Assembly (NCBI GenBank): GCA_903813345.2
Contig: CAIIXF020000001.1
Location: 26,908,001-26,972,000, forward strand
DNA from: Owenia fusiformis
Lineage: Eukaryota
Length of the DNA: 64,000 nt
Direction: 5' to 3'
Shown: positions 6,790 through 52,200 of the stretch, piece after piece
How positions within the stretch are numbered: position 1 is the first letter of the stretch
How the letters are laid out: every line of letters starts with the position of its first letter
Position numbers and translations under genes: made by a program
Notes under the pieces: model-generated
Databases searched by the model: none
Told to the model about the DNA's origin: nothing
What the model saw: the letters and a program-made list of their open reading frames with translations, nothing else

Positions 6790-7330
6790 CAATCATAATG
6801 CACATACCACAACATAGCCACTGTAGTAATACACATACCACAACATAGCCATTGTAGTAATACACATTATACAGCAAAGTCCTTGTAGTAATACACATAC
6901 CTCAGCATAGTCATTGTAGTAATACACATACCACAGCATAGCCATTGTAGTAAAACACATACCACAGCATAGTCATTGTAGTAATACACATTCGCCAACA
7001 TAGTCATTGTTGTAATATACATACCAGTATAGTCATTGTAGTAATACACATACCGCAACATAGCCACTGTAGTAATACACATACCACAACATAGCCATTG
7101 TAGTAATACACATTCTACAGCAAAGTCCTTGTAGTAATACACATACCACAGCATAGTCATTGTTGTAATACACATTCGCCAACATAGTCATTGTTGTAAT
7201 ATACACACCAGCATAGTCATTGTAGTAATACACATTCTACAGCATAACCATTGTAGTAATACCACAACATAGCCATTTTAGTAATACACATTCTACAGCA
7301 AAGTCCTTGTAGTAATACACATACCACAAC
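6790..7330. repeat. 30 bp minisatellite, left array
   Basis: Unit approx. catagtcattgtagtaatacacataccacag. Confidence 0.95.
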
Positions 7331-9166
7331 TCTGCAAAGATTATGTATTAATTCTAATGGTTGTGGAAATGGCGGTTGCTATAGTAACGTCAAAAATCGG
7401 TAGGCGGGGCAACTTTATTTGATCGTAAAATCCATGGATGTAGTTAGATTTCATCTTGAAATGTCATATGTTTTATCTGAAAGATTTGCAACCATAGAAA
7501 CAGGTTTTGACATCAGTGTGAAAGATGCAACTTTTCTGAGTATAGTTATTACTGTGACATCACATAAAAAGGTATGACATCACAGAAAAGGTTTCAATAG
7601 AGAGACCCAAGATGGCAGCTGACTGTGGTCTTGTGAAAAGTCAAGATGAAATTCAAATTCAAATCCGTAGTGTGATAAGATTTTGTGTGTTATCCAAGAA
7701 ATCAAGAGGAGAAACAATAAAAGCAGTTCAAGATATTTATGGAAAGGAGTTAATGAGCACACATATACCATATACCAATGGTATCAAAGGTTTGGTTCAG
7801 AGGGAAGAAAATCTGTGATGGATGAAAAACGGACTGGCAGACCGGTAAAAGTCACCAACCCAAAGGCTGTTGAAAGAGTTAAGACAGTTCTAGATGATGA
7901 TCGCCGCATCTCTGTACGGGAACTTAGTGAGAATGTGAACATTAGTATAGGTAGAACACACTTCATTCTGAAAGAGAAGCTTAAAATGAACCTCATGTGT
8001 GCTAAATGGGTGCCAAAGGAGTTAACTAGTGACCAGAGAGCCCGCAGAGTTGAGGTTTCCCAAGAATTTCTAAGACGATACCAAGATGAAGGGGATAGTT
8101 TTCTTCAACGAATTATCACATGCGACGAGGTGTACGTCAGCTATTATGAGCCCCTTGGGAAGAGAGCATCAAGTGGTTGGAGAACTAAGAACTCACCTAC
8201 TCCCATTTCAACCCTGGCAAAACTGACCAAAAATGACGGCAAGGTGATGTTCATTGTGTTTTTGGATAGCTCTGGGGTGCTGCTTACGCATGCAATTCCT
8301 GATGGTCAGAGAATAAACAAGGACTATTATGCAATGGTAAGCTTATTCATTATTAATAAATTAATCAATATAAGAGTAAAAACATTAAATCAAATCAAAT
8401 TTAAAATCAGATTTGAACTATAAAAATGGTTAAGTACAAATGTTAAAGGCATTAGTATCCTATCCTACTGACTATTTCAGGTTCTCAAGAGGCATCTCAA
8501 ACGGGCCTTCTCAAAGAAACGCCCCCTCCTAGAGTTGGCGACAAGAATATTTCATCAGGATAATGCCCCGTGTCACCGGGCAGAATTTGTACTGAACACC
8601 ATAGGAGAACTCGGAATGGAAGTTCTCCCACAGGCACCATATTCACCTGATGAAGCCCCATGCGACTTTGGCGTGTTTGGCCCAATGAAAGATGAGCTGA
8701 GAGGTTTTCGATTTGCATCGACAGAAGATTTGCAGAATGCAGTCCAAAATGCTCTCAGAGCTAGATTTCCTGATGGATTCCATAAAATCTTCCAGGATTG
8801 GGTAGAACGTCATCGAAAGTGTGTCGCATCCAATGGACATTATTTTGAGCATTTAAAGTAGGAATAGAAACATTTACCCCATACTATTTCATGGGATAAA
8901 TGGGACTACATGACATTAAAACACTTGTTACTCTCCACAATGTTGAACTGAATTATATGCCACTATGACGTCAAATAATCTGCCCCGCCTACCCATTTTT
9001 CATGTTACTATAACAACCGCCATTTTCACGACCATTAGAATTAAAACTTAATTTTTGCAGGGTTGTTACACAGATACATTCTGCATCGTCTGTGAAATTT
9101 TCATGGAAAAATATAAAAAACTCTTAAAATGAGAGCAAAATTATGAGAACTTATTGAACGACCTGG
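7326..9166 (+). mobile_element. Mariner (DD34D) DNA transposon with long imperfect TIRs of about 200 bp; outer part of the left TIR lies at 4497-4571
   Basis: 7326-7430 is inverted relative to about 8965-9066; the right end ...ttattgaacgacctgg is followed by TA (9167-9168); transposase inside. Confidence 0.9.
7612..8861 (+). pseudogene. Mariner transposase with one 144 bp intron (8337-8480) and one frameshift (about 7763)
   Basis: WVPKEL motif, TCDE, HQDNA, YSPDEAPCDF with 34 residues between the 2nd and 3rd Asp; phase-0 intron GTAAGC...CTGAC...TTTCAG; the N-terminus from ATG 7612 is in another frame, joined by removing 2 nt in cacatatacc. Confidence 0.88.
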
Positions 9167-15964: not shown

Positions 15965-18900
15965 ATGGCGGCCCAAAACACAAATGTTCGCATTTTGCGG
16001 AGATTAATTCGAGAATTAAGACACATCAGTGGCAAGGTAAGTTAGATAGTTCATTTAAGATATAACATATCTCACTGACTTTGTATGTCATAAGTTTTTT
16101 TTATACTGTTAAGGTATCATTGCTAATTTTCTTCCAAAAGTTATGAAAATCGTTGAGCTTTTTTTAGAAATAAATCCGAAATGGTCTAAATTTCTCAATT
16201 TCATAAGAATCTCGCCATGAAATTGGAATTTCATGAACGAGATGTAGCTGAGATTTTATACATTGCCGTTGCTCGCAACCAATCAGCGTTTCAACCTCAT
16301 TAATATTCATTAATAATGTAACAAACTAGCCGATTTGTGGTAGTGTGAGGGCTAGGTTACTTTGGGATTTCTTGGTACACGTTAAATGTACTTGTGTTTT
16401 ACAGTAATTACAACACGACAAACAATATAGATTTATTTCACATATATTATAACATTAATTATAGACAAATAAATTCAAAATGTCCAAATAAACTTGTTGT
16501 TGTTAATTATATACACCCACTCTCTGGTACAATAATAGTTCAAAGTAGAATTCTATTCAAAGTTCACAGTGGCCAAACTGAATCCCAATGATGACTGTAA
16601 TGCTGGCCTGGGTGCAAGGGTTACTTGAGGTTCCTGGTTAGTAGAGTCCCCTTCAGTCCTCATACACACACGGATGCATATAATCGCGATCAAACAGGTC
16701 ACTATGAATAAAACACTGACTAGGACTAAGGCGAAGAAAGGAACATCCAATTCCATGAATTAGGTCTATGAAGGCTGGACACCACGTCTGTAAGCTCTAT
16801 GCTGGGGATAGCTTCACCCTCTTGAAGTGCTGTCCAGTCCTGTAGATTCCCACGCAGCAAATCGACTTAGTTCTTCAGATAGCAGAAAACTTCTAAGTTT
16901 TGTAGATCCAAAATATCAGCTAAGTTTTGCAGTTAGCAAAAACGACTAAGTTTTGTAGTTCCAAAAATTCCTCTAATAAGCCAATAAATTCATCCAGGTT
17001 GTCACATCAATGGCTTATAATCATCAATGGCTACTTCATCAGGCTAAGAGAAGTCAATAGTCAATAGTCAATGGTCAGTCATCCCATGTAGCAGATCGAC
17101 TATGTTCTTCAGATAGCAGAAAACTTCTAAGTTTTGTAGATCCAAAATATCAGCTAAGTTTTGCAGTTAGCAAAAATGACTAAGTTTTGTAGTTCCAAAA
17201 ATTCCTCTAATAAGCCAATAAATTCATCCAGGTTTTCACAGCAATGGCTTATAATCATCAGTTGCTACTTCATCAGGCTAAGAGAAGTCAATAGTCAATA
17301 GTCAATGGTCAGTCATCCCATGTAGCAGATCGACTATGTTCTTCAGATAGCAGAAAACTTCTAAGTTTTGTAGATCCAAAATATCAGCTAAGTTTTGCAG
17401 TTAGCAAAAACGACTAAGTTTTGTAGTTCCAAAAATTCCTCTAATAAGCCAATAAATTCATCCAGGTTGTCACATCAATGGCTTATAATCATCAATGGCT
17501 ACTTCATCAGGCTAAGAGAAGTCAATAGTCAATGGTCAGTCATCCCATGTAGCAAATCGACTAAGTTCTTCAGATAGCAGAAAACTTCTAAGTTTTGTAG
17601 ATCCAAAATATCAGCTAAGTTTTGCAGTTAGCAAAAACGACTAAGTTTTGTAGTTCCAAAAATTCCTCTAATAAGCCAATAAATTCATCCAGGTTTTCAC
17701 AGCAATGGCTTATAATCATCAGTTGCTACTTCATCAGGCTAAGAGAAGTCAATAGTCAATGGTCAGTCATCCCATGTAGCAGATCGACTATGTTCTTCAG
17801 ATAGCAGAAAACTTCTAAGTTTTGTAGATAGCAAAAATGACAAAGTTTTGTAGTTCAAACAATTCCTCTAGTAAGCCAATATTTTCATCTAGGTTGTCAC
17901 ATCAATGGCTTATAATCATCAATGGCTACTTCATCAGGCTAAGAGAAGTCAATAGTCAATAGTCAATGGTCAGTCATCCCATGTAGCAGATCGACTATGT
18001 TCTTCAGATAGCAGAAAAACGACTAAGTTTTGCAGATAGCAAAAATGACAAAGTTTTATAGTTCCAGAAAACTGCCTAAGTTTTGTAGTTCCAAAAATCC
18101 CGTAAATCAGAGCCACATAGTCCCGTTCGTCAAAAGTCAATATGCTATCTGCTCCAACATCAGTGGCTTATAATCATCTAGGACTATCGGGCTAATAGTC
18201 AGCGAAAAACTTCCTAAGTTTTGTAGTTCCAGAAAATTCCTCTAATAAGCCAATAAATTCATCCAGGTTTTCACAGCAATGGCTTATAATCATCAGTTGC
18301 TACTTCATCAGGCTAAGAGAAGTCAATAGTCAATAGTCAATGGTCAGTCATCCCATGTAGCAGATCGACTATGTTCTTCAGATAGCAGAAAACTTCTAAG
18401 TTTTGTAGATCCAAAATATCAGCTAAGTTTTGCAGTTAGCAAAAACGACTAAGTTTTGTAGTTCCAAAAATTCCTCTAATAAGCCAATAAATTCATCCAG
18501 GTTGTCACATCAATGGCTTATAATCATCAATGGCTACTTCATCAGGCTAAGAGAAGTCAATAGTCAATGGTCAGTCATCCCATGTAGCAAATCGACTAAG
18601 TTCTTCAGATAGCAGAAAACTTCTAAGTTTTGTAGATCCAAAATATCAGCTAAGTTTTGCAGTTAGCAAAAACGACTAAGTTTTGTAGTTCCAAAAATTC
18701 CTCTAATAAGCCAATAAATTCATCCAGGTTTTCACAGCAATGGCTTATAATCATCAGTTGCTACTTCATCAGGCTAAGAGAAGTCAATAGTCAATGGTCA
18801 GTCATCCCATGTAGCAGATCGACTATGTTCTTCAGATAGCAGAAAACTTCTAAGTTTTGTAGATAGCAAAAATGACAAAGTTTTGTAGTTCAAACAATTC

Positions 18901-21900
18901 CTCTAGTAAGCCAATATTTTCATCTAGGTTGTCACATCAATGGCTTATAATCATCAATGGCTACTTCATCAGGCTAAGAGAAGTCAATAGTCAATAGTCA
19001 ATGGTCAGTCATCCCATGTAGCAGATCGACTATGTTCTTCAGATAGCAGAAAAACGACTAAGTTTTGCAGATAGCAAAAATGACAAAGTTTTATAGTTCC
19101 AGAAAACTGCCTAAGTTTTGTAGTTCCAAAAATCCCGTAAATCAGAGCCACATAGTCCCGTTCGTCAAAAGTCAATATGCTATCTGCTCCAACATCAGTG
19201 GCTTATAATCATCTAGGACTATCGGGCTAATAGTCAGCGAAAAACTTCCTAAGTTTTGTAGTTCCAGAAAACTTCCTAAGTTTTGTAGTTCAATAACTTC
19301 CCTCAATAAGCCATTTAATTCACCTAGAATCCAACACCAGTGGCTTATAATCATCTATGGTTACTACCTCAGGCTAATGAAGTTCAATTAGGCAAGTCAA
19401 TCATCCCATGCCATCCTTCAGTTAGCAGAAAACTTCCTAAGTTTTGTAGTTCCAAGAATCGTCTAAGTTTTGCAGTTAGCAAAAACGACAAAGTTTCATA
19501 GTTCCAAAGATTCCATAAACCCGAGCCACATAGTCCCGTTCGTCAAAAGTCAATGCGCAGAAAGCCCCCGAGTCACGTCCGCCACCGTATTTATACCCCA
19601 ACATGTATGTAACATGTGTTTTGCACACGAAACTATCTGCCTAACCAATCATAGCTCACGAGCGGCTGATGCAATACCTGGCCAGTCACTGGAATCCCAG
19701 CCAGGATATCACTAGTGCATAATTAATTAATATGATGCAATGATGACATAACTTTTGCAAAAAATTAGCTTCACCTAACAATCACGATCTCTGGTTTTTA
19801 ACACAGAACAAACATATATCTTGCAATTAACTAGCTAGATTAAGATATAAACTAGATAAATATAACAAAAACCAATCATCATTGGCTCTAATTATGGCGA
19901 AATTGCAAGGAAAAACGAGTTATTGAATGTAGGTCAACAGAGCTCTCTAATAGGAGGTGAGAAAATGCACACAAACGAAAGCAAAATAAATCTCCCAGAA
20001 AAGAGTAGTTTACACTATTCCCAGTACACCTAAAGTGTTCTATTCATAAATATAACTATATAAGCTGTCAACTGTGACTGGAAAACACTTTCCTACTGTC
20101 AAAACTGTCTAAAGTGCTAAAAAACGGCACTGGACTCCAAAAATAAAATTTTGAAAAATTGAAAAATTCGTTACACTCCTCCCAACCAATGATTTTGGTG
20201 TTAACAACACCAAGCCTAAGTTATAAAAAAAATAACGAATTTTTCCTAACTAGCTATTTCTTACACTTATAACTTATCTGGTTTGCTTAACCCCGGGGTT
20301 ATCTATCAGTCATTTTCGAGATGCGATGAGAGTTATCTAACAAACACATTAAACTCTGGTTTATCTCAAACCTTAACGATAAAAATCTAACTACTATGTA
20401 CAAAATTATCTTCACAAGTTTCAACTTGCAGCTAACTGCAATTCATACTCATCACAAAATTATTCTCATGCTAATTGCCTCGACATACTTAATATTACTC
20501 AAGGCTGTGCTTCCGAATAAGTGTTCATGGGAGGCAATCAACAATGATTCCTCCAATCATAATCTGTGTCACATCTCTGTCGGGGTCCTGAGTATTGCGA
20601 CCTATAGACTCTTGCTAGTGGGACCTTAATGGGACGAGTACTGGACGTACCTGGACCATTCTGTCCAACATCTCTCAGGCTTCCAGGAAATTCACTCAGT
20701 TTCCCTCGCTGGCTACATCTCTTCCCTCTGGATGGATGACTACCTGCTAAATCCAGAGCCACTCTCCTCGATGTGCTTTTGTATGTGCCTCCAACACGTA
20801 CCTGAGCCTCTCTAGAACTTCCTGATCTCATAGACATCTTACGCTGACCATAGTCTAATATGGCTCCTGCAGCAGCAAGGTAATCAGTACCTAAGATGCC
20901 ATCGAATTCAATATCTGCCACTACTACTTTCAAGTTCTCAACATGGCCACCAATGTTTATTCGAACATGTGCAACACCTTTTTGACTCAATGGTTCTCCA
21001 CCAGCTTGTATGATGACCCTATTTGATGGCTCAAGTCTTGGCCTCTTAAGTTCAGGCATCTTACGGTAGACCTCCGAGTTTATTATGGTACTAGCTGCTC
21101 CTGAATCAACTAGAAATGCAACATCTGTGTTGCAAACGGTTCCATGAGCCACTATCTTATTGGTGTGTTTGGAAGCCTTGACATCTTTACCCTGATGGGA
21201 TAGAAACTCAACTGTGGCTACCTGGCTGTGACTCTCTTGGGCTTCCTTAGCCCGCTCTTCAGCGTATTTTCTAGAGAAGCACTCGGCTATTCTATGTCCA
21301 GGCTTGTGGCAGTAAAAGCATTCCATTCTCTTGGGAGCTGGCCTTGACATCTCGGGCTCAGGCTTGTTCTGCTTGGACATTAATTCCATTATTTTTCCCA
21401 TTAGAGTTTCGATTTTATTCTCAAGGGCCATTAATTTTTTTTCATTCTCATCCTTGTCTTCAATGGCCATCACACGACTACACTTTGGTTTTTGTCCCTT
21501 CCTTATCTTTTCAGATTCCAGATAGGATTCCTCCTTAAGGGCTACTTCAATGGCCTGGTCCAAGGTATTACATTCCTTTGAATGTATTGCCCTTCGGATA
21601 TCCTCTTCTAATATGGACTGTTCAAAACTTCGTCGGGCAAGTCGATCCTGAGCAGTACGACTCATCTCTGGATAAGCCAGTGCAGTGAGCCTCCTTATGT
21701 CCTGGCCAAGAGTTTGCAGAGTTTCCTTAGGCTTTCGAATCCTGCTGACTAACTCTGCCTCATAAACCTCGGCCTTGCCACCCGGACCAAATCTCTTTTC
21801 AAGAGCCAAGAGGAGTTGGTCATAAGTATAACCATGTTCCATTTCCAGAACTATTTCCTGAGCAGGGCCTCTAAGACTCGTGGCCAAGAAATTTCTATTG

Positions 21901-24900
21901 TCTTCTTCTGACCAATGGTTTAAATCCCCGATAATTTCAAAGTAGGCTCTATAGTCCTGCCAAGCAGTGGACCCGTCATACACATCTGGTTTAATTCGGC
22001 TTTTACTGGAGGATCCAGAGTTCTCTGAGCCAAATTTGTCACATAGTTTAGAACACATCCTTATTAGCTCTGTGTTTAGATTGGGTTCAGTAGTATTTTC
22101 CCCTTTAACTACTGCTGTATCTTCCTCAGAATTAGCAGCTGACCCTAAAGAAGGTTTAAGGTCCTTCCCCACTTCCCTGCGACTCATACCACATGGTTTA
22201 GAAGTGGTGTATGTTACATTCACTCGTCCACCTTTGTCTTCTAAGGGCTTAGGCCTGGACATTATGTCATCTACATTTCGATTAATTGCCTGCGTACTGG
22301 GTTTCATATAAATCCTCTCCTGCCTCCGCAAACTCCATGGTTTCCTTGACCCTACAGTCAAGATATCAGGAGTGAAACCAGGCTCCGGCGGTGATTGAAA
22401 TGGATGTGCATGGTCCATTGAGCCAATCTCAGATTGAATGCTACTCTGTAGTTTTTCAACAATGGAAGTCTCTATGTTCTGTTGAAAATCTTTCATTTGT
22501 GTTTGCATTTCCTGTCTGTTGACTTCCACTCTCTGTGCAATCCTATTAATATTGTGGAGCTGAGCTTGTTGGGACTCCACTACTGTTTCTGCTAAACGCT
22601 GCATTTGTTTTTGCTGGTTTATCATTGTCTCACTTAACAGTTCAATTTTTGACTCAAGCTTACACTCCCTTATCCTTGAGTCAGGTTCCCTCCTAATTTC
22701 CTCACCCGGTCCTCCAAATTGCCTATCAGCTAAAGTGGAAGTGAGTGGGAACCTCTGTCTCCTTGGGGGTTCTCGTCTTGCCCCAGGTATTGGGTCAAAT
22801 GGGGTTTTAGCATCTGTGAAGGCAGCTCCAGTCCAATATCCAGAACTCGACTGACCAGGTAACCCCATTTTTTCAGTATCAGAATCAGAAGTGTCAGTTC
22901 TGGTGCCAGGATAAGGAAATGCCCATTTAGGGGACCCTTTCTTTTTATCAATATATTTCGGATCACGAACAGTCTCATCACCTGCTCCCGGATTATCTAT
23001 ATCCATTTTATCGGTCTTCAGAAAGACTGTTTTCTCACGTTCACTATCCCCCTTATTCTCTAAAGGTGGTGGAGGAGGAAGACCTGTCTCCTGTTCCATT
23101 TTGCTATGTTGTATCACAAAGTCTGCAGTCACAATATCCCACCGCTGCCACCAGTGTAACAAACTAGCCGATTTGTGGTAGTGTGAGGGCTAGGTTACTT
23201 TGGGATTTCTTGGTACACGTTAAATGTACTTGTGTTTTACAGTAATTACAACACGACAAACAATATAGATTTATTTCACATATATTATAACATTAATTAT
23301 AGACAAATAAATTCAAAATGTCCAAATAAACTTGTTGTTGTTAATTATATACACCCACTCTCTGGTACAATAATAGTTCAAAGTAGAATTCTATTCAAAG
23401 TTCACAGTGGCCAAACTGAATCCCAATGATGACTGTAATGCTGGCCTGGGTGCAAGGGTTACTTGAGGTTCCTGGTTAGTAGAGTCCCCTTCAGTCCTCA
23501 TACACACACGGATGCATATAATCGCGATCAAACAGGTCACTATGAATAAAACACTGACTAGGACTAAGGCGAAGAAAGGAACATCCAATTCCATGAATTA
23601 GGTCTATGAAGGCTGGACACCACGTCTGTAAGCTCTATGCTGGGGATAGCTTCACCCTCTTGAAGTGCTGTCCAGTCCTGTAGATTCCCACGCAGCAAAT
23701 CGACTTAGTTCTTCAGATAGCAGAAAACTTCTAAGTTTTGTAGATCCAAAATATCAGCTAAGTTTTGCAGTTAGCAAAAACGACTAAGTTTTGTAGTTCC
23801 AAAAATTCCTCTAATAAGCCAATAAATTCATCCAGGTTGTCACATCAATGGCTTATAATCATCAATGGCTACTTCATCAGGCTAAGAGAAGTCAATAGTC
23901 AATAGTCAATGGTCAGTCATCCCATGTAGCAGATCGACTATGTTCTTCAGATAGCAGAAAACTTCTAAGTTTTGTAGATCCAAAATATCAGCTAAGTTTT
24001 GCAGTTAGCAAAAATGACTAAGTTTTGTAGTTCCAAAAATTCCTCTAATAAGCCAATAAATTCATCCAGGTTTTCACAGCAATGGCTTATAATCATCAGT
24101 TGCTACTTCATCAGGCTAAGAGAAGTCAATAGTCAATAGTCAATGGTCAGTCATCCCATGTAGCAGATCGACTATGTTCTTCAGATAGCAGAAAACTTCT
24201 AAGTTTTGTAGATCCAAAATATCAGCTAAGTTTTGCAGTTAGCAAAAACGACTAAGTTTTGTAGTTCCAAAAATTCCTCTAATAAGCCAATAAATTCATC
24301 CAGGTTGTCACATCAATGGCTTATAATCATCAATGGCTACTTCATCAGGCTAAGAGAAGTCAATAGTCAATGGTCAGTCATCCCATGTAGCAAATCGACT
24401 AAGTTCTTCAGATAGCAGAAAACTTCTAAGTTTTGTAGATCCAAAATATCAGCTAAGTTTTGCAGTTAGCAAAAACGACTAAGTTTTGTAGTTCCAAAAA
24501 TTCCTCTAATAAGCCAATAAATTCATCCAGGTTTTCACAGCAATGGCTTATAATCATCAGTTGCTACTTCATCAGGCTAAGAGAAGTCAATAGTCAATGG
24601 TCAGTCATCCCATGTAGCAGATCGACTATGTTCTTCAGATAGCAGAAAACTTCTAAGTTTTGTAGATAGCAAAAATGACAAAGTTTTGTAGTTCAAACAA
24701 TTCCTCTAGTAAGCCAATATTTTCATCTAGGTTGTCACATCAATGGCTTATAATCATCAATGGCTACTTCATCAGGCTAAGAGAAGTCAATAGTCAATAG
24801 TCAATGGTCAGTCATCCCATGTAGCAGATCGACTATGTTCTTCAGATAGCAGAAAAACGACTAAGTTTTGCAGATAGCAAAAATGACAAAGTTTTATAGT

Positions 24901-27900
24901 TCCAGAAAACTGCCTAAGTTTTGTAGTTCCAAAAATCCCGTAAATCAGAGCCACATAGTCCCGTTCGTCAAAAGTCAATATGCTATCTGCTCCAACATCA
25001 GTGGCTTATAATCATCTAGGACTATCGGGCTAATAGTCAGCGAAAAACTTCCTAAGTTTTGTAGTTCCAGAAAATTCCTCTAATAAGCCAATAAATTCAT
25101 CCAGGTTTTCACAGCAATGGCTTATAATCATCAGTTGCTACTTCATCAGGCTAAGAGAAGTCAATAGTCAATAGTCAATGGTCAGTCATCCCATGTAGCA
25201 GATCGACTATGTTCTTCAGATAGCAGAAAACTTCTAAGTTTTGTAGATCCAAAATATCAGCTAAGTTTTGCAGTTAGCAAAAACGACTAAGTTTTGTAGT
25301 TCCAAAAATTCCTCTAATAAGCCAATAAATTCATCCAGGTTGTCACATCAATGGCTTATAATCATCAATGGCTACTTCATCAGGCTAAGAGAAGTCAATA
25401 GTCAATGGTCAGTCATCCCATGTAGCAAATCGACTAAGTTCTTCAGATAGCAGAAAACTTCTAAGTTTTGTAGATCCAAAATATCAGCTAAGTTTTGCAG
25501 TTAGCAAAAACGACTAAGTTTTGTAGTTCCAAAAATTCCTCTAATAAGCCAATAAATTCATCCAGGTTTTCACAGCAATGGCTTATAATCATCAGTTGCT
25601 ACTTCATCAGGCTAAGAGAAGTCAATAGTCAATGGTCAGTCATCCCATGTAGCAGATCGACTATGTTCTTCAGATAGCAGAAAACTTCTAAGTTTTGTAG
25701 ATAGCAAAAATGACAAAGTTTTGTAGTTCAAACAATTCCTCTAGTAAGCCAATATTTTCATCTAGGTTGTCACATCAATGGCTTATAATCATCAATGGCT
25801 ACTTCATCAGGCTAAGAGAAGTCAATAGTCAATAGTCAATGGTCAGTCATCCCATGTAGCAGATCGACTATGTTCTTCAGATAGCAGAAAAACGACTAAG
25901 TTTTGCAGATAGCAAAAATGACAAAGTTTTATAGTTCCAGAAAACTGCCTAAGTTTTGTAGTTCCAAAAATCCCGTAAATCAGAGCCACATAGTCCCGTT
26001 CGTCAAAAGTCAATATGCTATCTGCTCCAACATCAGTGGCTTATAATCATCTAGGACTATCGGGCTAATAGTCAGCGAAAAACTTCCTAAGTTTTGTAGT
26101 TCCAGAAAACTTCCTAAGTTTTGTAGTTCAATAACTTCCCTCAATAAGCCATTTAATTCACCTAGAATCCAACACCAGTGGCTTATAATCATCTATGGTT
26201 ACTACCTCAGGCTAATGAAGTTCAATTAGGCAAGTCAATCATCCCATGCCATCCTTCAGTTAGCAGAAAACTTCCTAAGTTTTGTAGTTCCAAGAATCGT
26301 CTAAGTTTTGCAGTTAGCAAAAACGACAAAGTTTCATAGTTCCAAAGATTCCATAAACCCGAGCCACATAGTCCCGTTCGTCAAAAGTCAATGCGCAGAA
26401 AGCCCCCGAGTCACGTCCGCCACCGTATTTATACCCCAACATGTATGTAACATGTGTTTTGCACACGAAACTATCTGCCTAACCAATCATAGCTCACGAG
26501 CGGCTGATGCAATACCTGGCCAGTCACTGGAATCCCAGCCAGGATATCACTAGTGCATAATTAATTAATATGATGCAATGATGACATAACTTTTGCAAAA
26601 AATTAGCTTCACCTAACAATCACGATCTCTGGTTTTTAACACAGAACAAACATATATCTTGCAATTAACTAGCTAGATTAAGATATAAACTAGATAAATA
26701 TAACAAAAACCAATCATCATTGGCTCTAATTATGGCGAAATTGCAAGGAAAAACGAGTTATTGAATGTAGGTCAACAGAGCTCTCTAATAGGAGGTGAGA
26801 AAATGCACACAAACGAAAGCAAAATAAATCTCCCAGAAAAGAGTAGTTTACACTATTCCCAGTACACCTAAAGTGTTCTATTCATAAATATAACTATATA
26901 AGCTGTCAACTGTGACTGGAAAACACTTTCCTACTGTCAAAACTGTCTAAAGTGCTAAAAAACGGCACTGGACTCCAAAAATAAAATTTTGAAAAATTGA
27001 AAAATTCGTTACAATAAGTTAACTGTATATATACCTGAGGATGATAGCGTCTCGGTCTATTTGTGCTCTCGAGAACATGGAAAGTAAATAGGCATATATT
27101 ATGAAATTGAGATCTTACCATACCATCTAGTGGACTTGGTAAGGTATTCTTCTTAAATCGCAGTCATACACTGCCTTGTGTATAACGGTTTCTAGTCACT
27201 CCTTGTGATGAGATTTGTGTAGTTATCTTGATTGCAGATCAAATCCGTCACTTCTTGTGAGGAGGAAGTCATTCGTCACTTTTGTGCGAAAAAGTTCATC
27301 ACTTCTTGTGAGAGTTAATGTGTGTCATCACTACTTGTGAGAGTTAATGTGTGTCACCACTACTTGTGAGACAAAGTTCATTGTTCATTGAGATGAAAGT
27401 TCTATATACATCGGCCCTTGTGGAATCCTAGTGGCCCTCTGATCCTTGAGTGAGATTTATCCCCTGAAACAATATAAATAAATATTGTTTACAAAGTGTA
27501 ACTGAACATGTAATATAGGGTAGGGCGAGGTGGGCGACATGTATAAAATCTCAGCTACATCTCGTTCATGAAATTCCAATTTCATGGCGAGATTCTTATG
27601 AAATTGAGAAATTTCAATATCACTCGATGTAGCTTTCGATTTTATACATTGCCTGTTTAAAGCTAATCTCACCTCAAGATTGTAGATGAGAAGTCTGTGA
27701 CATCTTTTTTGTAAAATCTGAAAAAAGTCATTGCATTTGACCAATTGCCAGTATTTACTATTTGGTTTATAGACAATCCTTTGGTCCAGGCCTTTGACGT
27801 GGAGGCAGCTCTAGTTGAGTGAGCTTTATATGTGTTGGTATCTATGCCCGCCTGTTCCATTGTTGCTTTCAGCCAGTTGGCAATGGTACAAGAAACTACA

Positions 27901-30900
27901 TATCTGGGTTTTGGAGGTTTTGAATTAAAGAAACCTTTCATTAAGGAAATTATAGTTGGATGTTGACCTACCTTCATGCCCTCTATTGGATTGTGGTAGG
28001 CTGAAATTGCAGATCTGTAGCCATTTATAGTGGAATACAACTTACCTGTTTCGAATAGGTAGGTAAGGAAGTTGGCTATATTTGCCACAGAGGATTGAAG
28101 TGGAGAATAGCCCCGTTCAGAACACCAGCTTTCCCACTTTTTCCAGCTGCTGTTGTAAGCAGCTGATGTACCTGTTCTCCTGGCTTGGAGGAGGACTTTG
28201 GCAGTGTTTTTTGAAAACCCTTCTGCTTCATACCTGACCCTGAGATTCTCCAAGCCCCTAGATGCATTTTCCCCTCTGTTATCATTGGGTGGGTTTGCTG
28301 TAGGGGTGATTTCAAGAGACTGTCTGATGTTGGGAGAAGTATTGGTATTGCTATTGACATTTGAATTAGCATGGGGTACCAAGGTTGGTTTTGCCAGATT
28401 GGGGCAATCAGAATGATTTCTGCTAGATCCCTCTTTACTTTCTCCAGTAGTCTGCCTATAAGGCAGAACGGAGGAAAGCAGTAAAGCAGTCTGTTGCTCC
28501 AGTTCTGAGTAAATGCGTCGGTTGCCATCGCAAATGGATCTTTCTTCCAACTGATGTATGCGTTTAACTGTGCATTCATCCTGCTGGCAAAGAGATCCAC
28601 TTGTGCTGGCCCCCATATTTTGTTTATTTGGAAGAAAATGGATTTCTCCAGCATCCAGTCTGATTGATCTTTGAATATTCTGGATGCCGTGTCCGCTATT
28701 ACATTGGACTTCCCCTCCAGGAACTCTGCTATAAGAGTGATCTTCCTGGTGAGACAAAAGTCGAATATTGTTTTCGTTAGTTCGACAAGGGCTTTTGATC
28801 TGGTCCCCCCCCAGTTTGTTCAAATGGCTCATTGCTGTCATGTTGTCTGTTCTGATTAGGATATGAATGTTGGAGAGATTCTTTGTGAATGACTGAATTG
28901 CGAAATGTATTGCTTTGAGTTCCAGAAAATTTATGTGGCATGTTTTCTCTTGAGGGTTCCAGTGGCCCTGTATAATCTCCCCCTTTGAGACGGCCCCCCA
29001 CCCTGTTAGGGAACTGTCTGTTGTTATCGTTAGATCGGGTTCTTTTAGTTTTATCGCCCTCCCATTCCAATGATCTAATTGGGTTATCCACCATGTCAGT
29101 TCTTGTTTGACTTCTGAAGTAAGGAGGACTGTTGCAGAGTATGATTGTTTTGACCTCTTCAGACCCTGTGTTTTCAGAAACTGTAGGTGTCTGTAGTGGA
29201 GGGGAGCTGGTAATATTGCCAAAACTGTTGAAGAAAGTTTGCCTATCATTTGGGCCACCTCTGAGAGTGTGGCTTCTTTCTGATGATAAAGTTCCTTGCA
29301 TTTCATTTTGATTTTCAATGATTTTTCTATTGGTAGACTGAGTGTTAGATTCTGGGAATTGATGATGAAGCCTAGGTATTCTATTGTTTGTGTGGGCGTT
29401 AGAGTTGATTTTTCCCAATTTATCAAGAACCCGAGATTCTGAAGTAGGTAAATTGCTGTTTGAGCTTGGTTTTTGAGTGCTTTGGGGTGTTTGTTTAGAA
29501 TTATTAGATCGTCGAGATAGATAATGCACCTGAACCCCAGTTTTCTCATGATTGACATGGGCACTTTGAGAATTTTGGTGAATACCCTTGGACTGGACCC
29601 CAGGCCGAACGGGAGTGTTTTCATTTGATAGGTTGTGTTTTCCCATTGAAATCGGAGGTATTTCCGATGTTGTTTCGCAATTGGAACCGTCAAGAACGCA
29701 TCCCTCAAGTCGACCTTGATCATGAAATCGTTTTGTTCTACCATATGTTTGAGCATTGACATGTTCTCCATCTTGAAGTGATGGTATTCTACAAAATGGT
29801 TGAGAGGTTTGAGGTTTATGATTGTTCTTTTTGACCCGTCTTTTTTCGTTCTTAGGAAGAGATGGGATAGAAATTGATCGTTTGATGGGTTTGTTATTTC
29901 TATTGACATTTTTATTTCCAAAAGTTTTTTTATCTCTTTTGACATTTCTTGACGTTCCATTGCACTGAAGTTTGGCCAGTAAGGCGTAAACTCTAGCATG
30001 TATCCCTTGACTGTATTTAAAATGTTCGGATCTGAGGATACTTTCTCCCAATTTGCTACAAACCATTTGAGTCTGCCTCCTGTTGGGATGTTGCCCTTGA
30101 CTTGAATGAAGCCTAGATTCAACACATACTGACTTACCTCTCCTGTTAGGTTTGGGTTCGTCTGGCATGACTGACCTGGTTTTGTTTGAGGATAATTTGT
30201 TTTTAACATACCTGGATTTCCCTCCTCTGGAGGATTTGTTTCCCCTGGCACCACCTCTGGAGTTTCCTCTTGGTGTGACACCTCTTTGGGATCCGCCTCT
30301 TTGTGACGAGCGGTCGTATTTCGCCCCCCGACTACTTGCAGTTGAGGGGCCCTGGAGAAAGGGCTTGTTGAAGCTTCTTGAGAAACTTTTCTTTATTTTG
30401 TCCATTTCCTGTTTTTCTGAACTCTCTTTCTTGAGAGACTTGTAAAGTTCACGATTCATTAGTGATTTCTTGCATTTATTGAGTTCTTTCTTGTTTTCCT
30501 TTAGAAAGGTTTTCGCTTGATTTTTTTGAAAACCAAAAATAGGGACAAGAATTTCTAGTCGCCTATAAAATGTCAACATTTTGAAACTTTGGCCGAGTAA
30601 CAATATTGCTTGGTCAATTAAGTTTCTCAGGATGTTTCTTTCTAGCTTCTCGGTTGAATGAGAAAGTTTCCAAAGGGCCCCCAAGGGTCCCATGACATCT
30701 GACAATTTATGTTGAACAGTTTTAAGGTTGTTATCAGTTTTCTTGTGGTTTTTATTAGACATTTTATCTAAGTGTTTCCCTATTTTAGGGGGAACAATGA
30801 ATTTTGAGTCTGGTTTAGGAGACTTGAGGAGCATATTGTCAACATCGTCTTGGTTTAAAAGGTCTTCTTGCCAGTATTTTTTTAAGTACTGTTCATGTTC

Positions 30901-33900
30901 ATGACTAAGGCTCCATTGTCTTGATTTAAGTTCGTGAAAAGGGTCAAAAAGTGAAGACTTCTTTTTGCTTGAGACTTTAGCTCTTTTTTTGTGTTTAGAA
31001 TGTTTACCAGTGCGTGACTTGTAAGCACTACTATCTGAGGAGCTTGAGTCTGAACTTGAGTCAGAACTTGAATCTGTTGATTCAGAGCTACTTGTATTGA
31101 AAGACCTGTCTTTGGTACGTGTTGAGTTACCCTTGTGCCTTTTAGGCCGTTGAGACTCGTCACTAGAATCGGAGTCTGACTCCTTCAATGGAGTCCTGTT
31201 ACCACTAGACATTGTGAAATGATCAGAGTTACGTTTGCCTGTGGTTGGGTGACTATGTCTATCTTGGCGATTAGCCCTACTAGACGTATCGTCTGAATGG
31301 CGATTAGCCCTATCAGTTTTCTCACTAATGTCAGTTTCCCCGCTCAAAATTTCATTATCTTCTTGAGAAACTTCTTTTTCCACATCATTGTCTCTATTTG
31401 ACTCACCTTCTTTCCTTGAAGTTGAAGGTAAACTTGTTTGTTTGTTACTCATTGTGTGAGAGACTGATAAATAAATGTGCACTCGTGCCTAATGAGACAT
31501 GTCCAAGATGGAGACTGTCGACGTGGCAAATTGAATACTTGGAAAAATTTGAATTCCTATTTCCGTTTCCGTGTGTGTTAGCTCGAGAGCGAAGAGCAAA
31601 TAGGCCGAGACGCTATCATCCTCAGGTATATATACAGTTAACTTATTAATGAATATTAATGAGGTTGAAACGCTGATTGGTTGCGAGCAACGGCAATGTA
31701 TAAAATCGAAAGCTACATCGAGTGATATTGAAATTTCGATCGTACCCCAGGCTTAGAAGTTCATTTCGAAGGAGGATTGGCTCCCATGGTTCCATCTCGA
31801 TATTTTACCATAAATGGGTTCATGTGGTTATAGTGCTGATACAAAATAATAAAGGGTGAGTTTTCAAACTAGAGTCCATTTCACTGCTTGATTTCGTCAG
31901 TAGAACAGCAAAAATAAGAAATTGGGAGACCATTGTGCAATAATATATGGAAAAGTATATTCATAATGTACATGAATGACATTTGTATATCTTGCATTGC
32001 TTCTAGTTTGGCTTATAAAGTGTGTGGCCTCTTATATTTGGATGTTTCTCTGCCATGTTATTTTCAATAAGATTAACATGGCTGAAATTCTTCAAATTAC
32101 ACAAAAAACTAAAAAATCTGAAATATACAAATGTCATTCATGTACGTTATGAATATACTTTTCCATTTATTAATGCACAATGGTCTCCCAGTTTCTTATT
32201 TTTGCCGTTCTACTGACGAAATGAAGCAGTGAAATGGACTCTAAACAGAGTGCTCCTACCAAAATGAATTTGCCTACATACCCCTGAGACTCTTATCTGA
32301 TAGATAGAATGCACAAATAAAACAAAAGTTTTGCTATTAATTATAGGTAAAAAGTTAAATTTCGAAGTGATCTTACCTGTTAATTCTTTCATAGGTCCGC
32401 CAATTTTGCGGAAGTTACACTGAAACACAAATTCCATGAAATGAAACGAAATCATTAGAAAAAACATGGCACACATCATGCATACGTGCATAAAAGTTTA
32501 AACCAATGAGATTATTTGAATATTTTGCGCACATGATAAAAGCTAACCACAATTTACTTGAGTCTCTAGCTTACAGCTAGATGAAACTTCATTGATTTCG
32601 TATGTAATCTAGAAAAAGTGTCACACGCACCTAGAACTCCTATTTAATTATTCTTATGAATATATATAAAAATATTTATCATATATCTAGTTGAAAGCCC
32701 ATATCTGGATCAAGATATTTCAAAATTTCTTTTCGGAAAGAACCTCAAATTCAACAGATCCGCCATTTATACAGCTCTCTCAGCTTAATTAAAATATATA
32801 TAACAATCGATTAGAACCGGGATATAAGTTGATATTCTGCAAATGTGTACATAAAGGTATGTTTCACATAATTGTGCCATAACAGCTGTGCGTGTGTCAC
32901 CATGATTTACAAATATTGAATATCAGGGCGGCTGTAAACAATCACTCAAAGTCAGTATATAGAGAAGGACCTAAGTAAACCACATTAAACAAAGCTGGGG
33001 CAGATTACCTTACTCCATTTTAGGGAAATTTCAGCTCAAACTCGTGACAAATGCATTATGCATATGCTGGTATGAAGCCTTGGAGACACTCATTTTGGTA
33101 AATATTATTCACGGTGTATACTTTTCTGCAGTTTGTTGGAGTTTGGGACATTAAATGTTAAATTTCAAGAAAACATTCCAATTATACGACTTATCAATTA
33201 ATTTGTATCAGCACTATATTACAAAATTCGAAATTACAGCTGCCCCTTTTTCATTCAAGAGAATTGGAATCACAAGTTTTGGTCTTATTTTCAAACAAGA
33301 AATTTCAGTGAAGAAGTGATCAAGATATTAGTTCAAATCTTTTGGATCGCTGATAGCCAGGTATAATGTAGTACAAAATAATGACATTTTCAATGTTTTC
33401 ATCATTCTAGATCAAGATTATTAGAATATCAGCCATTCTCCTTAGATTTTATTTATGCGAATTTTGCCTTACTTTGAAATCAACATTGAACAAATTGCTT
33501 GGAGATTGAAAATAATGAATCAAAACCAAAGAGGATTGGTTTCCAGGGTTCCAACTCAATATTTTAATCTCCACGCAATTTGTTTGGAGCTTTCACCAAT
33601 ATATGCCTTTTTATGGCTTTTATGTGCAATTATGTGCAAAAATGTTGAAAATTCCCAAAGTAGGCCTTTAACAGTAGATTGAAGAGGAGGGGAAACCCCA
33701 GAGCTTAAGAAATTATAGATATAATTACGTCTCATGCTTACCATCGTTTGTTTGAATTTTCACTGGTTAGTTTCCTAATACCAGAGATTTGATTTGATAA
33801 TGAGCTTTCAATAGAAGGGTAGGCAACTTCCCATATTTCATACATAAGCATTGTCTTGGGTTTTCAAAATTGGAGAAAAATGCTTCCTGTAGACATTCCA

Positions 33901-40829: not shown

Positions 40830-41629
40830 TTATCCAACCACTGTCCCTTTGATTTTGCTAACTTTATCAGCTACACACGTACATCCAACAGCGATACGCT
40901 CCCAGTCTGGTATGTATTTGTAGAAGCCATCTTCACCGCATTCTCCTGCTTGTTTACGGAGAACTCTGACATTGTAGTAAACTGGTCTGCATCCAAACCC
41001 ATATTCTTTTCCATAGCACCCATCCTTGCAGTTGCAAGAGGCCTGGACCATTGTGCTTGGAAAGCGGTTCTTGTCGTAGTTATAGACATAACTATGGATG
41101 GAGAAAAGGAAAACATTAACATGATTAAAGACATTTGTAAGAAAAAAAGTTATTGTGTTTAAATCAAGTTTTGCAGGCTAAAGTCAAAATCTTTAATGGT
41201 TGATAGCATTCTAACTTTAACTTACTTTAAAATTTGGAACAAAACTGAAAGATCGTACATGGTATTTTAAAATGATACGTACCTCCAAGGGCAAATCGAT
41301 CGTTTCATGATGAAACGAGATGTCGTGTTAATTTTACATTCAGTGTCTCCAAATATATGACGCCCATTGTGATCCTCTCCTTTGGTTTCCAAATATGTCC
41401 GGGAGCGGTTCGCCCAATGAGCATGCAGTATTCTCGTTAAAGGTGGCAACATTGCAACATTTTCTGAGTAATCGCTATTTCTTCGTGCCCGTTGTAGCAC
41501 TCTGGAAAGATTCTGTGGTTCGTTGCATTCTGAACCGTACACATTCTTGTTGTTTAAGACGGTAATTGCATACGTTATGAAGAACAACAAAATTACTTTG
41601 TTGAACATGGTTGTCATGTGCGTGTCCAT
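40830..41629 (-). CDS. IL17: Interleukin-17 family cytokine, 2 coding exons, about 202 aa
   Basis: Exons 41629-41283 and 41091-40830 (phase 2, GT-AG); signal-peptide-like N-terminus; RSICPWSYVYNYDKNRFP..ASCNC..GC...CRPVYYNVRVLR...C...ERIAVGCTC cystine-knot signature; a splice acceptor lies directly before the ATG. Confidence 0.93.
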
Positions 41630-42785
41630 CTGAAAGTAATTATCAGGAATTAGTGAGACGAATCGATGGAAATTGGGAAGTGGGGAAGTGCCGTCAGTCT
41701 TTCAAATTGGGAAGTGCGGTCAGTATTTCAAATCTGAGTAATCTCTATTTTCATTGAAAACCCCTGCGCTAATTTTTAAATCTAATTGATTCATTTCAAT
41801 GTATAGTTTTTCAAGGAAAAGAAAATTTGTTTCGTATGACTTTATAATTTCAAATCATAGTAAAAATACGGGTGAGACAAGTAGAACTTTTTGTAAACAT
41901 AGTAAAAATACGGGTGAGACAAGTAGAAATTTTTGTAAACAATTTCAAAAATATGACAAAGATCTAATTGAAAAAAGGAGCACGTAGGTTATCGCAAACA
42001 ATTTCAGACCACGATTCTAACTTAAATTATGAATATTTTCTGATTATGAACGCGGGTGTATCTTTTAGACCCATTGATTATCTTTAAGAAAAGTATAATG
42101 ATAATTACGTTAATCAGACTGAGTGATATTAAAGGGGCAATGAACCAACAACATACTTTTTTCAAAAATGTTGAACTAATTTTCAACAAAAATGCAACAT
42201 TTTATTATATTGTTGAATGCGTAACCACTTTAAGATATGTTCTTTTCCCTAAAGGAAAAGTGGATTCCTCCAGGGACTTTAAAGATACATGATTGCATTT
42301 TTGTGAAAATGAGGTCAACATCTTTGAAGAGGTGTGTTGATGCTATCTAAATATCTACGAGTCCGATTGACTTTATTAAAATAATCATTGTATATAATTT
42401 TCTTTGAGACAATACATGGATCTAAAAGATATAATGTCTTCATGGTCAGAAAATAGTCATAATCCAAGATATAACCATCTGAAATTGTTTGCGATAACTT
42501 ACCTGAACCTTTGTACATGTTCTTCCCCATAGTCATCTCTGTACTAAACGACTATCTGTTGTCAGGTTGCATGATATTAATTATTAGGAATATAATGACT
42601 ATGAGAAATTATATAAATTGTAGGAAATTAATAATTTTACATACTAATCCACAACGAAATCAAATGTGCAATTATTGAAAAGTATAAAACTTTCATTATA
42701 ATATTTCTATTTCTATTTTAGATTTCATTTATTATTTTACAATTAAGCCATTATTTTTCTTTAAAACTCAATGTACGTCGCCTGT

Positions 42786-49230: not shown

Positions 49231-52200
49231 ATGGCTTCTGTATACATGTTGTCTGGAGAATACCAAGATCAGATCGAACACATCCACAAACAACTACAAC
49301 ATAAACTAGGTATGATAGTTTAGAATAATTTTTAAGCTCGTAGACAGCTTTTGGCCAAGGGGATCACTTGAAAAGTGCTCAGAATGGTGAAAAACTGCTT
49401 AATATGAAAGAGTATTTGGCCAAGGCCCTCACTATGGGCCTGATTTATATCAATAACCCATACCATAGCACAGGGGATATTTATTGACATAGCCCAAAGC
49501 AGTTGACTTATATCTAAGTTGATCATAATTTGGTCATATCTATAAAAACACAATTAACATTGTCATGACGTATAAAATCCCATTGTCATCTTAAACGACC
49601 CAAATGGTTAGTCACTTTCGGATCATTCCAAGACAAGACTCGTAACATTACATCAAATTCAATATGACAACAGCAAATAAATTGAAGTTATTTTCAAAGG
49701 AAATATGGTGAATAACAGTAAAAGTTTAAGATAGATAGATTCCTGGATCTAGGATTTTGTCAAACTGAGTTGCTTTATAAAAAGCTCACATCTGAGCACT
49801 CTTCCTGTTTTTATACAGTACTGTACTTTGTTAAGCAGTTATGTCCCTATCATTGAATATATGCCTAAGGTCTGTCACCAATATAGCCCGAGCTTGCGAG
49901 GGTTATATTACGACAGACCGAAGGCATATATTCAATGATACGGACATAACTGTTGTATTACATACTTTTATATCATGGCTACGTTATATCAATGACGCCA
50001 CGTGTCTGTGTGCGAGTGAAATTAGGAAGAAATGAAACATGACGTCCCGATGCCGTCATAAGATTGTCATGGTAAAAGGTTTGGCGGCTATACAGGAATA
50101 TATAGCCGACCTTCAGCTCCATTGACTTCAATACAAATGCTTCGCTGGGTATGTAATACATGGTATTATTGCTCTTTTGCAGTTGGGAATCATGTACTAA
50201 TTGGGTCACATTCACAGAACATTGGTTGTCTGAATGTCAAGACTATTACAGAGGTATACCTCCAGTTACACAACCAGTACAAGTTGTATCGCAATGAACG
50301 GGAAACCATGCTTAATCAGGAGGATCAACTCATTATAGTACAGCTCTGCATGGCTGAAAGAAATAAGAAGGTAGCGTACTTAATGAACGCCTTAAATGGA
50401 ATCCTTAAATGCCACTTTACATTGTCAATTCAGCAAAAGTCATTCGAAATTCCCAATATTGTTAATTCTGATTTTTAAATAATATGTTTGCAACAAAAGT
50501 TAAGTGAAATAAAGCTCTCTTAAAAATGTCTTATTTCAGTGCAGCTTTGTGAGTTTGATGGGAAGTATGAGTACTTCAAATCATTGTTTGACATTTTTTA
50601 TTAAGGAATTTGGATCATTTGAAGTCGATGTCAGTGCAGTGCTTGAAGCCCATACAAAGTTGACCAAACACATGCTTAATCCTACTGAATATGAACTGTC
50701 TGATGACCTGAGGCCTGTTAGTGACTTATATGCAAGTTTCATGAAGGAATGTAATATGTTAGACTGGTACACATTGTTCAGCAGAGTAAAAAAAGCCATG
50801 GAAAGTGATGAGAAACTCAAAGAAAATCTTGCCTCTATGAGTGTCTTAGCATGTGGAATCCCCCGAAGTGAAATTGAGGTACAGTTTTTACCATTTTAAA
50901 GTCAAATAGAAACACAGGCAATAATGAAAATAAGTAAAAAATAGTTTGTGCTTTGCAAAAAGTAAAGTGAGATATGTTACTAATCAAAAAAGGGAGAAAA
51001 AATCGTACATAGATTGTTTCCAGTTGATTTCAGATGAGGTCTAAGATTGTTATATGTATGTTTGCTGGCTAAATTCGTTGGCTTGTGTCTTCAGAAAGCA
51101 ATGTTTCTACATCTATGCACTGATAAGGCATGTGAAGCTGTAGAGGTAGAGACACCCTTGGATGGCTCAGCCAGTGATGTTAAAGTTAACTTATTGCCTA
51201 CTTCATTGATAGAGGGACTGGAGAAAGATGTAAACGCAAACTCAGCCACCCACCCTCAGTCAGTCACAGAGGTAAATCATGCACAGAGATTAGATCTTGG
51301 GGAGGGATTGTATACTGGGCATATCGATGAATAATATAAAATTGGATAGCGTTGTAACATCACACCTGTATGGATGGTGATATCAATTTGAAAATATAAA
51401 AATACAATCTAAAAAAATCTTTTCCTGAAAAGATGTATCTGTTAAATGCAAGTAAATCCATATCATTTAGGAGGAATCATCAATCACCTGAGGCAACTAG
51501 TGTTGAATTTCTGATAACATTTTACAGATTTATGCAACAAGTGTGTTCCTGGCATACATCCATCTGCTGGTGAATTCTCGGAGTGAGTTGTCTCTTGCCA
51601 GAGCTGTAAATGTCCCTGATAGGGGAATCGACCATGCTGCCTTCACAGACCTTAAGAGGGTATCTAAGCAGAAAAATATGCCAATGTATCAGGTATGTTA
51701 TATTTAGAAAGATGAGATTTTATGACTTCATGAAGGCATTATGCTAGTGTTGCCATTCAAAACTGAGGTAGTGCGTCTTTAGGAGGGGGGGGGGTATATA
51801 TTTACATGGGGTAGGGATACCTTACTGGCCTTTCATGGATATTGGTGTTGTTCACATCATTAGAGGGCATCCTGAATATTTTCATTTTGAATAATAGCAT
51901 CCATTTATCGTGATGTGTACTTGTATATTAATCATCTGTAATAGAAAAGATGGATGCTAAAATGTAGATAACATATATGGAAATAGAGACATTGACGACA
52001 TCTGTTATATAGCATTTTGTGTGTACTTTTATTCTTTTTGTGTTTTTAAACCAAGGCCTAAATAAATGTATATAGAACATTGCTCTCCCCAGGATTTTTT
52101 CTCAAGTGTATGCAAAATTCTTATTTTTTATTTATCATTTTTCATGATTTTATTCTCATTTTTCAAGTGGGTGCAAAATGATTCTCAGGTGGGTGTCACA

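Follow-up and report, generated by a model that had tools for sequence, protein, structure and literature searches.

A short gene under purifying selection inside the giant long terminal repeats of Owenia fusiformis Ty3/Gypsy retrotransposons very probably encodes a membrane microprotein

The window analyzed here is a stretch of 64,000 nucleotides of Owenia fusiformis DNA. Its minus strand carries a young Pol-less Ty3/Gypsy element with two identical 3,859-bp long terminal repeats (LTRs), which showed no mismatch over 3,858 compared bases (Table 1). The Metaviridae hallmarks that were tested were found in this element, namely TG..CA LTRs, a primer-binding site (which we take to be that for tRNA-Leu), a polypurine tract, and a target-site duplication. 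Along each LTR, unique sequence containing a TATA-like box (580 nt into the LTR) is followed by a tandem array of ~2.7 kb, a short ORF (sORF), and an AATAAA motif. A Pfam search of the internal 853-aa ORF showed an aspartyl protease above cut-off and a weak CCHC knuckle, and detected no reverse transcriptase (RT), RNase H, or integrase in it; its C-terminal tail has a motif common to other Pol-less elements. The ~90-nt segment preceding the sORF is common to the window's LTR family (family A, 23595-23690), family J (L071 1510-1610), and the old broken copy L067. It folds into only a weak stem-loop in family A (z -1.82; 8 of 200 shuffles equally good), and the family J version forms the same stem-loop, likewise weak (z -0.77).

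Table 1. Positions of the retrotransposon features in the window
Feature	Position	Strand	Remark
5' LTR, 3,859 bp	23155..27013	-	runs from a promoter-like unique part through tandem array and sORF cassette to a poly(A)-like signal and the LTR end
3' LTR	16317..20175	-	identical to 5' LTR
sORF, 3' LTR copy	16553..16756	-	67 aa, single-pass membrane protein (predicted)
sORF, 5' LTR copy	23391..23594	-	identical; stop ~290 nt upstream of gag ATG
TATA-like box	26426..26433, also 19588-19595	-	580 nt into LTR; same context in related LTRs F and G; putative promoter
Tandem array, 200-234-bp units	23690..26400, also ~16850-19560	-	approximate limits
5' part of cassette, ~90 nt	23595..23690	-	resembles a segment in LTR family J, which lacks the sORF, at 80-85%
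AATAAA	23270..23275	-	121 nt from LTR end
Primer-binding site, 18 nt	23136..23153	-	
Gag-protease ORF, 853 aa	20538..23099	-	
Short polypurine tract	20176..20185	-	before 3' LTR
4-bp target-site duplication	16313..16316, other copy 27014-27017	.	

The element was inserted into a terminal repeat of a DIRS-like element (16188-16316 and 27014-31740), one terminal repeat of which is therefore split; this host element has inverted terminal repeats, an RT, and weak RNase H and integrase SAM-like matches. Other features of the window are a mariner-like transposon with inverted ends, a split transposase, and a 31-bp tandem array in its flank (7326-9066), a two-exon interleukin-17-like gene on the minus strand (40830-41701; IL17 domain E 2e-15), and a rhodopsin-family GPCR ORF without introns (62411-63283). 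In a second, unrelated LTR element (52194-56559), the direct repeats are identical, the Gag is SCAN-like with CCHC, and of pol a remnant of RNase H is left, the other parts being apparently deleted.

The sORF has 67 codons, starts with ATG, and is read on the same strand as gag. Both copies are located in non-array LTR sequence, 239-439 nt from the LTR 3' end. An earlier note on this DNA had reported a 67-aa sense-strand ORF at these positions, in non-array sequence of both LTRs, and this was correct throughout. Dinucleotide resampling of the 545-nt segment, repeated 5,000 times, never produced a sense ORF of at least 60 aa that was equally hydrophobic. In the window protein, 6 residues precede a hydrophobic run at residues ~7-27 (Kyte-Doolittle 19-mer 3.29), with Cys at 21, 27, and 31 and Arg at 29 and 33. 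The earlier description of a 6-residue N-terminus, a hydrophobic run, and two Arg thus held, except that the tail is more than polar: its last ~17 residues form a conserved motif with alternating hydrophobic residues. Likewise, of the three Cys residues placed near the membrane exit, Cys27 and Cys31 are there, whereas Cys21 lies within the membrane segment. Alignment of ten sequences showed that the three Cys residues and the final Asn-Phe are invariant (10/10), and that Cys27 and Cys31 are spaced as CxxxC rather than adjacent. The N-terminus has no basic and two acidic residues in all ten, and the net charge of the tail is never above zero. Residues 28-40 contain 0-3 K/R and 2-4 D/E, so a strong polybasic stretch is absent, as had been noted. 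Scoring of the last 16 residues, downstream of the Pro-rich linker, gave a moment of 0.11-0.25 at 100 degrees versus 0.37-0.51 at 170 degrees, indicating a strand-like pattern.

Next, we searched the Owenia genome itself for further copies. The window protein gave at least 59 matches, 15 at 96-100% and 44 at 43-55% identity; 55 of the 59 covered the full query and 58 were without an internal stop. A second query gave 60 matches. The copies fall into five subfamilies, A (that of the window), B, C, D, and E, with amino-acid identities of 43-100%, subfamily C being known from one LTR only. In all five the sORF is 67-68 aa long with shared start and stop positions, and 29 of 30 fetched matches lie 420-519 nt ahead of an LTR end. 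Broken copies were also observed: the N-terminus is shifted in L014/L015, the start codon is lost in L029/L030, the C-terminus is altered in L026 and L091, and L066 and L067 have several breaks. At one locus (L040-L042, G000:C8 33.50-33.52 Mb), three sORF-bearing LTRs follow one another, with no Gag ORF between the last pair.

Selection on the sORF was then analyzed. Between subfamilies, dN/dS was 0.09-0.37 in 8 of 10 pairs, and dS was saturated in the other two. The ORF DNA is 60-79% identical, with 0-1 gaps in nine of ten pairs and four in one, whereas the 204-nt flanks are 48-67% identical with 5-15 gaps, compared to 47-52% for shuffled sequence. Fisher tests gave p <=1.5e-4 in all five pairs tested. 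A codon model of seven sequences, with kappa taken from a grid of three values, yielded an omega of 0.284 and a lnL of -1027.0, compared to -1056.5 with omega fixed at 1 (2ΔlnL ~59). Synonymous sites are near saturation (pS 0.44-0.82) and third positions change most, while the amino acids are kept. The bias is weaker within young families, where eight A alleles showed 10 synonymous to 7 non-synonymous changes and ten B alleles 11 to 14. The low dN/dS, the near-random flanks, and the 58 of 59 copies without an internal stop indicate that the sORF is a protein-coding gene under purifying selection. Pooled omega was 0.09 for residues 1-31, 0.76 for residues 32-50, and 0.10 for residues 51-68, showing that the two ends are constrained and that the linker between them is nearly free. 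The earlier note had named frameshifts or stops combined with neutral substitution among diverged copies as an outcome that would refute its reading; this is not the pattern that we observed.

These data bear directly on the idea that the peptide is unimportant, the sORF serving as a uORF that regulates gag or merely accompanying a conserved RNA or DNA element. The short distance from the family A stop to the gag ATG (~290 nt) and the folded segment ahead of the ORF would suit such a role. However, it is largely refuted by dN/dS, given that synonymous sites have changed so far while the amino acids are kept. Furthermore, the sORF is found anywhere between 439 and 693 nt away from the LTR end among the compared families, and an Rfam search of seven loci showed no family at LTR ends, its only hits being two weak miRNA-family matches in the L060 flank. 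We regard this idea as hardly credible.

The earlier note had also drawn an analogy to the reovirus FAST fusogens and to small membrane ORFs of insect elements. According to the available parts of the respective sources, FAST proteins have an ectodomain of 20-40 residues and an endodomain containing a polybasic motif along with an amphipathic helix (PMC7830690; also PMC12945298). Voichek et al. 2025 described sORF2 in Drosophila 412/MDG1-group LTR retrotransposons and, in the text available to us, set out what characterizes sORF2-like proteins: their ectodomain has ~30 residues, usually with a myristoyl motif, and they further possess a polybasic region, amphipathic motifs, and a Tyr that follows the transmembrane segment (TM); these proteins have 63-107 aa and are encoded upstream of gag or downstream of pol, that text describing no LTR position, and palmitoylated variants were left out of the authors' search (PMC11952523). 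According to an excerpt of another paper, 80% or more of the mdg1-group consensus sequences contain sORF2 (PMC13486581). With its 67-68 aa and one hydrophobic segment, the sORF protein lies within the FAST/sORF2-like small single-pass range. It further resembles sORF2 in that its ORF has sense orientation, precedes gag in the genomic RNA of a Metaviridae element without env, and is under purifying selection, and it resembles p10/p14/p15 of reoviruses, as far as our partial sources go, in being small, single-pass, and probably N-out, with juxtamembrane Cys as in p10. However, its ectodomain has 6 residues in all ten sequences instead of ~20-40, residue 2 is Glu in all ten instead of the Gly2 of an N-myristoylation motif, and a juxtamembrane polybasic region is absent from all ten. 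The last 16 residues of the tail form no amphipathic helix, and no Tyr follows the TM. Moreover, no fusion peptide is present, and the protein is shorter than the ~100-200 residues given for FAST in the available parts of PMC7830690 and PMC12945298. Unlike sORF2, the sORF is optional between twin LTRs (see below), and its location inside the LTR means that it is duplicated and present in lone LTRs. By these sequence features the sORF protein is no member of the FAST/sORF2 group. Its size, its probable topology, its invariant juxtamembrane Cys, and the omission of palmitoylated variants from the search of Voichek et al. speak for a loose analogy, which is also what the earlier note had called it.

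A minimal cell-cell fusogen replacing Env, in line with the possible env substitute of the earlier note, might nevertheless take another form, either a palmitoylated FAST-like variant or, if the protein is N-in/C-out, a myomerger-like one in which the conserved hydrophobic C-terminus would act as a membrane-active ectodomain. Such variants fall outside the search of Voichek et al. (PMC11952523, available part), and in myomerger a short N-terminus is combined with an ectodomain at the C-terminus (PMC7830690, available part). The size within 63-107 aa, the sense orientation upstream of gag, and the lack of an env domain in the elements by Pfam would also fit. We consider it quite improbable, given the ectodomain of 6 residues, the missing Gly2, polybasic run, and Tyr, a tail with charge no higher than zero and a helical moment of 0.11-0.25, and a cassette that is missing from near-twin LTRs, whereas sORF2 is kept in most mdg1-group consensus sequences.

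Coronavirus E appears, by analogy, closer in layout to the sORF protein than FAST or sORF2 does. As stated in the available part of PMC6537279, E has an N-terminus of 7-12 residues, palmitoylated juxtamembrane Cys, and a role in assembly and egress. Both proteins have a very short hydrophilic N-terminus, one long TM, Cys at the membrane exit, and a C-terminal tail; the sORF protein differs in being retrotransposon-encoded, in having no significant sequence homology to E, and in that no amphipathic pore face was detected. A viroporin, that is, an oligomer forming a small pore in secretory membranes as E does, would be in keeping with the size and layout (PMC6537279, available part) and with the feature comparison in the Atlas, where coronavirus E (CoV_E) and influenza B NB clusters scored 0.82-0.87, which are leads only. 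The TM, however, showed no one-face conservation periodicity, as 2,912 of 10,000 shuffles were as strong (five subfamilies, low power), and offers few polar residues for lining a pore; we regard a viroporin as decidedly unlikely. The closest Atlas look-alikes were the small host membrane proteins TMEM52, SMIM36, and stannin (0.90-0.94), no FAST cluster was among the clusters shown, and the recognition value of the window protein was 2241, under the guide value of 2300.

The relation of the sORF to Pol was analyzed in fetched elements. In the B and E representatives, one ORF (2,679 and 2,599 aa, respectively) encodes protease (PR), RT, RNase H, and integrase (IN), and the order PR-RT-RNase H-IN was found in sORF-bearing P0003 and P0004, whereas the window copy ends after PR. 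Among 25 matches to the end of the gag-pol ORF, seven had unbroken frames of 2,590-2,722 aa, each between two sORF-bearing LTRs. Conversely, 8 of 16 stretches fetched by promoter similarity had Gag-protease-only ORFs of 859-986 aa, and the sORF profile gave no match below E 0.2 in any of the 16. Five other fetched family A elements are also Gag-protease-only. Because the sORF is found in full gag-pol elements and is absent from eight Pol-less relatives, the Pol-less design and the sORF vary independently, and the module of Gag plus a membrane protein without Pol that had been proposed for this locus is not supported; a part of the protein in cell-to-cell transfer is conceivable. The window element resembles TR-GAG and other plant Gag(-protease)-only LTR elements, as described in partly available sources, in being Gag-protease only, in its identical LTRs, and in having to borrow Pol; it differs in its animal host, in its 3.9-kb array-filled LTRs, and in the protein-coding cassette within them.

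Comparison of related LTRs showed that the cassette itself is optional. The LTR of family F (contig C4, an element with pol) has the array in common with the window LTR, is 96% identical over the last 200 bp, and precedes an almost identical Gag start, but lacks the ~340-bp cassette. Similarly, family J (51 pattern matches) and E are 70-78% alike in the array and 85% over the last 430 bp, and all 51 family J matches lay more than 6 kb from each of the 60 sORF matches. When one representative LTR per family was scanned for F, G, H, I, and J, no sense ORF of at least 30 aa had a hydrophobic 19-mer above 1.8; an unrelated, mildly hydrophobic 32-aa ORF occurs in other family J copies. Since two near-twin LTR pairs differ by the cassette, it is optional and mobile, being gained or lost as a unit between array and LTR end. 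In trees from which rows with less than 80% of the domain were removed (capsid 2/18, RT 7/18, protease 1/18), RT-RNase H placed the sORF-bearing families B, D, and E in one group (92/93, under the starred level), as did capsid (97/96), and the family A Gag grouped weakly (83/85) with sORF-less F, G, and H. The simplest reading of these unrooted trees is that the sORF was gained once in the B/D/E lineage and then exchanged or lost through LTR recombination. Database matches at ~50% are automatically named 'transposon 412', which is a name and no phylogenetic placement.

Two further features of these elements were observed. One basic Trp-containing tail motif recurs in Gag-protease elements without Pol that belong to no fewer than five LTR types (A, D, E, G, H, L106; window 20538-20640; L041, L084, L090, L106, L111, L112, and L114), and tblastn gave no credible match to it in seven elements with pol. 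The proteases of these Pol-less elements group together in one tree (97/99) and are not resolved in a second tree with more rows; the elements could represent an ancient non-autonomous lineage borrowing its LTRs and gag starts. In full elements, 400-600 low-complexity residues after integrase are followed by a conserved C-terminal domain of ~40 aa (L032 675-8711, L046 1269-9065; L058, L061), which is an in-frame fusion in B, E, G, and H, whereas a stop precedes it in F and I; neither of its two separate forms had a Pfam match.

Homologues outside this genome were also searched for. A search of 5.8 billion proteins with alignment A1, limited to 36-119 aa, gave 265 candidates, none at E <=10. 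The sole match of an HMM search of 1.84 billion representatives, a 975-aa repeat protein (E 5.7e-4), was rejected as spurious. Neither the 160 pattern matches in metagenome contigs nor the 61 in viral contigs included a confirmed sORF homologue. As the searched collections are poor in animal repeats, these results say little about the range of the gene. Pfam searches with ten sORF members gave nine families at E <=0.1, all generic TM matches, those of the window protein being below cut-off.

An origin or function on the host side was considered on these grounds. Vpu exemplifies a viral protein whose TM modulates a host membrane protein, and a Vpu- or SPAR-like accessory protein would bind a host membrane protein by its TM and redirect or regulate it, without a direct part in capsid transport; counter-defence, exclusion of rival elements, and effects on host-cell physiology are examples. 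The optional presence of the sORF, its mobility between LTRs, and its independence of the Gag lineage are consistent with this, as is its much faster evolution compared to RT (pN 0.15-0.24 versus 0.03-0.06 in B, D, and E). The Pfam matches to SPAR and TMEM52 point the same way, but they are generic and below cut-off. TMEM52 as a host source gene was rejected, since none of its seven genome matches was above cut-off and six were sORF copies, and the seventh, a host-type exon and the best non-LTR match, scored 7 bits to the sORF profile. Furthermore, there is no sign of positive selection, the linker omega being 0.76. A host modulator seems rather unlikely.

Expression was analyzed in sequencing runs. 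On the 4.2 kb mapped, three RNA runs of 11-13 million records apiece gave 61, 44, and 25 reads. In these runs, mean depth in the two bins that cover the ORF was 0.07-2.2 (first mate on +) and 0-0.7 (-), a handful of reads that would be sense-directed in stranded libraries of the usual kind. RNA depth over gag was equal to or below that over the sORF, and no splice joint to the sORF was seen in reads on the mapped stretch, which excluded the array. A higher depth at 23580-23705 was rejected as sORF expression, as its loose ends trace at least partly to sORF-less family J. Among the runs listed as containing the sequence, none is on record as RNA. One run, X1, had ~15-20 times more depth at 19520-19800 than over the sORF; we take its loose ends to resemble tagmentation adapters, and X1 may be a chromatin library. 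Its peak in the TATA region was not counted as evidence for that reason and because 79 genomic candidates share the region.

Taken together, the sORF very probably encodes a functional membrane microprotein, as judged from its sequence, and it is best explained as an optional accessory gene of one giant-LTR Ty3/Gypsy clade. The AATAAA would put the sORF in R, and if this motif and the TATA-like box are both used, as the motifs suggest, each LTR would be a transcription unit of its own. Any LTR (5', 3', or solo) could then express the sORF from a short LTR-only RNA, and the product could act in trans. Families A, B, and F have an AATAAA at the corresponding place, whereas D, E, G, and I lack it there. 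The leader from TATA-like box to sORF has 2,809 nt and 64 ATGs, so translation of the sORF would need a splice, an internal start, or shunting. Accessory proteins encoded in LTR sequence are known from MMTV sag and HIV nef, which are located in U3, with expression from the 3' copy; the sORF, in contrast, lies downstream of the putative promoter, near the LTR 3' end.

Tentatively, and short of calling it probable, we propose that the sORF protein is a membrane tether, an S-acylated adaptor that acts in trans and steers capsids to a membrane or an export route. The protein would insert N-out/C-in without a signal peptide, although the charge bias for this topology is weak and, on the C side, absent in subfamily C. 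S-acylation would occur on Cys27 and Cys31, and the short C-terminal motif, held in the cytosol on a flexible tether, would bind a trafficking adaptor or Gag. The three regional omegas follow the pattern of anchor, linker, and motif. Capsids would thereby be brought to the membrane or an export route such as vesicles or cell contacts, the protein itself not being the fusogen, and the window element would be a Pol-less hitchhiker carrying the cassette. The abundance of family J without the sORF, as in F, G, H, and I, indicates that the gene is not needed for transposition, and the weak grouping of the family A Gag with those of sORF-less families argues against a tight Gag-specific partnership. 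In a bolder form, which we consider unlikely, each LTR, lone ones included, would be a self-contained gene, with its own promoter, array, ORF, and poly(A) signal, for a non-FAST microprotein that moves env-less capsids out of the cell or to a neighbour, the cassette being traded by recombination among LTR families and acting in trans.

In the literature searched, which lay mostly outside subscription journals and Repbase, we found no description of an LTR-internal retrotransposon membrane microprotein, and the available parts of PMC12440569, PMC13524379, PMC8556966, and PMC6431247 do not mention one. What may be new for a retrotransposon accessory membrane protein is its position, inside the LTR, and its anatomy, which the myristoylation-based screen behind sORF2 would miss. 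LTRs are treated as non-coding and skipped by annotation pipelines, whereas here an LTR-internal gene of 67-68 aa is kept under purifying selection in five subfamilies with near-saturated synonymous sites. A screen for short selected TM ORFs inside LTRs is applicable to any repeat library, and the two near-twin LTR pairs with and without the cassette in one genome provide natural contrasts for tissue expression. The finding widens the accessory-gene repertoire of env-less retrotransposons and, if this LTR gene does give capsids a route out of the cell, it would add, from outside arthropods, a second and independent substitute for Env.
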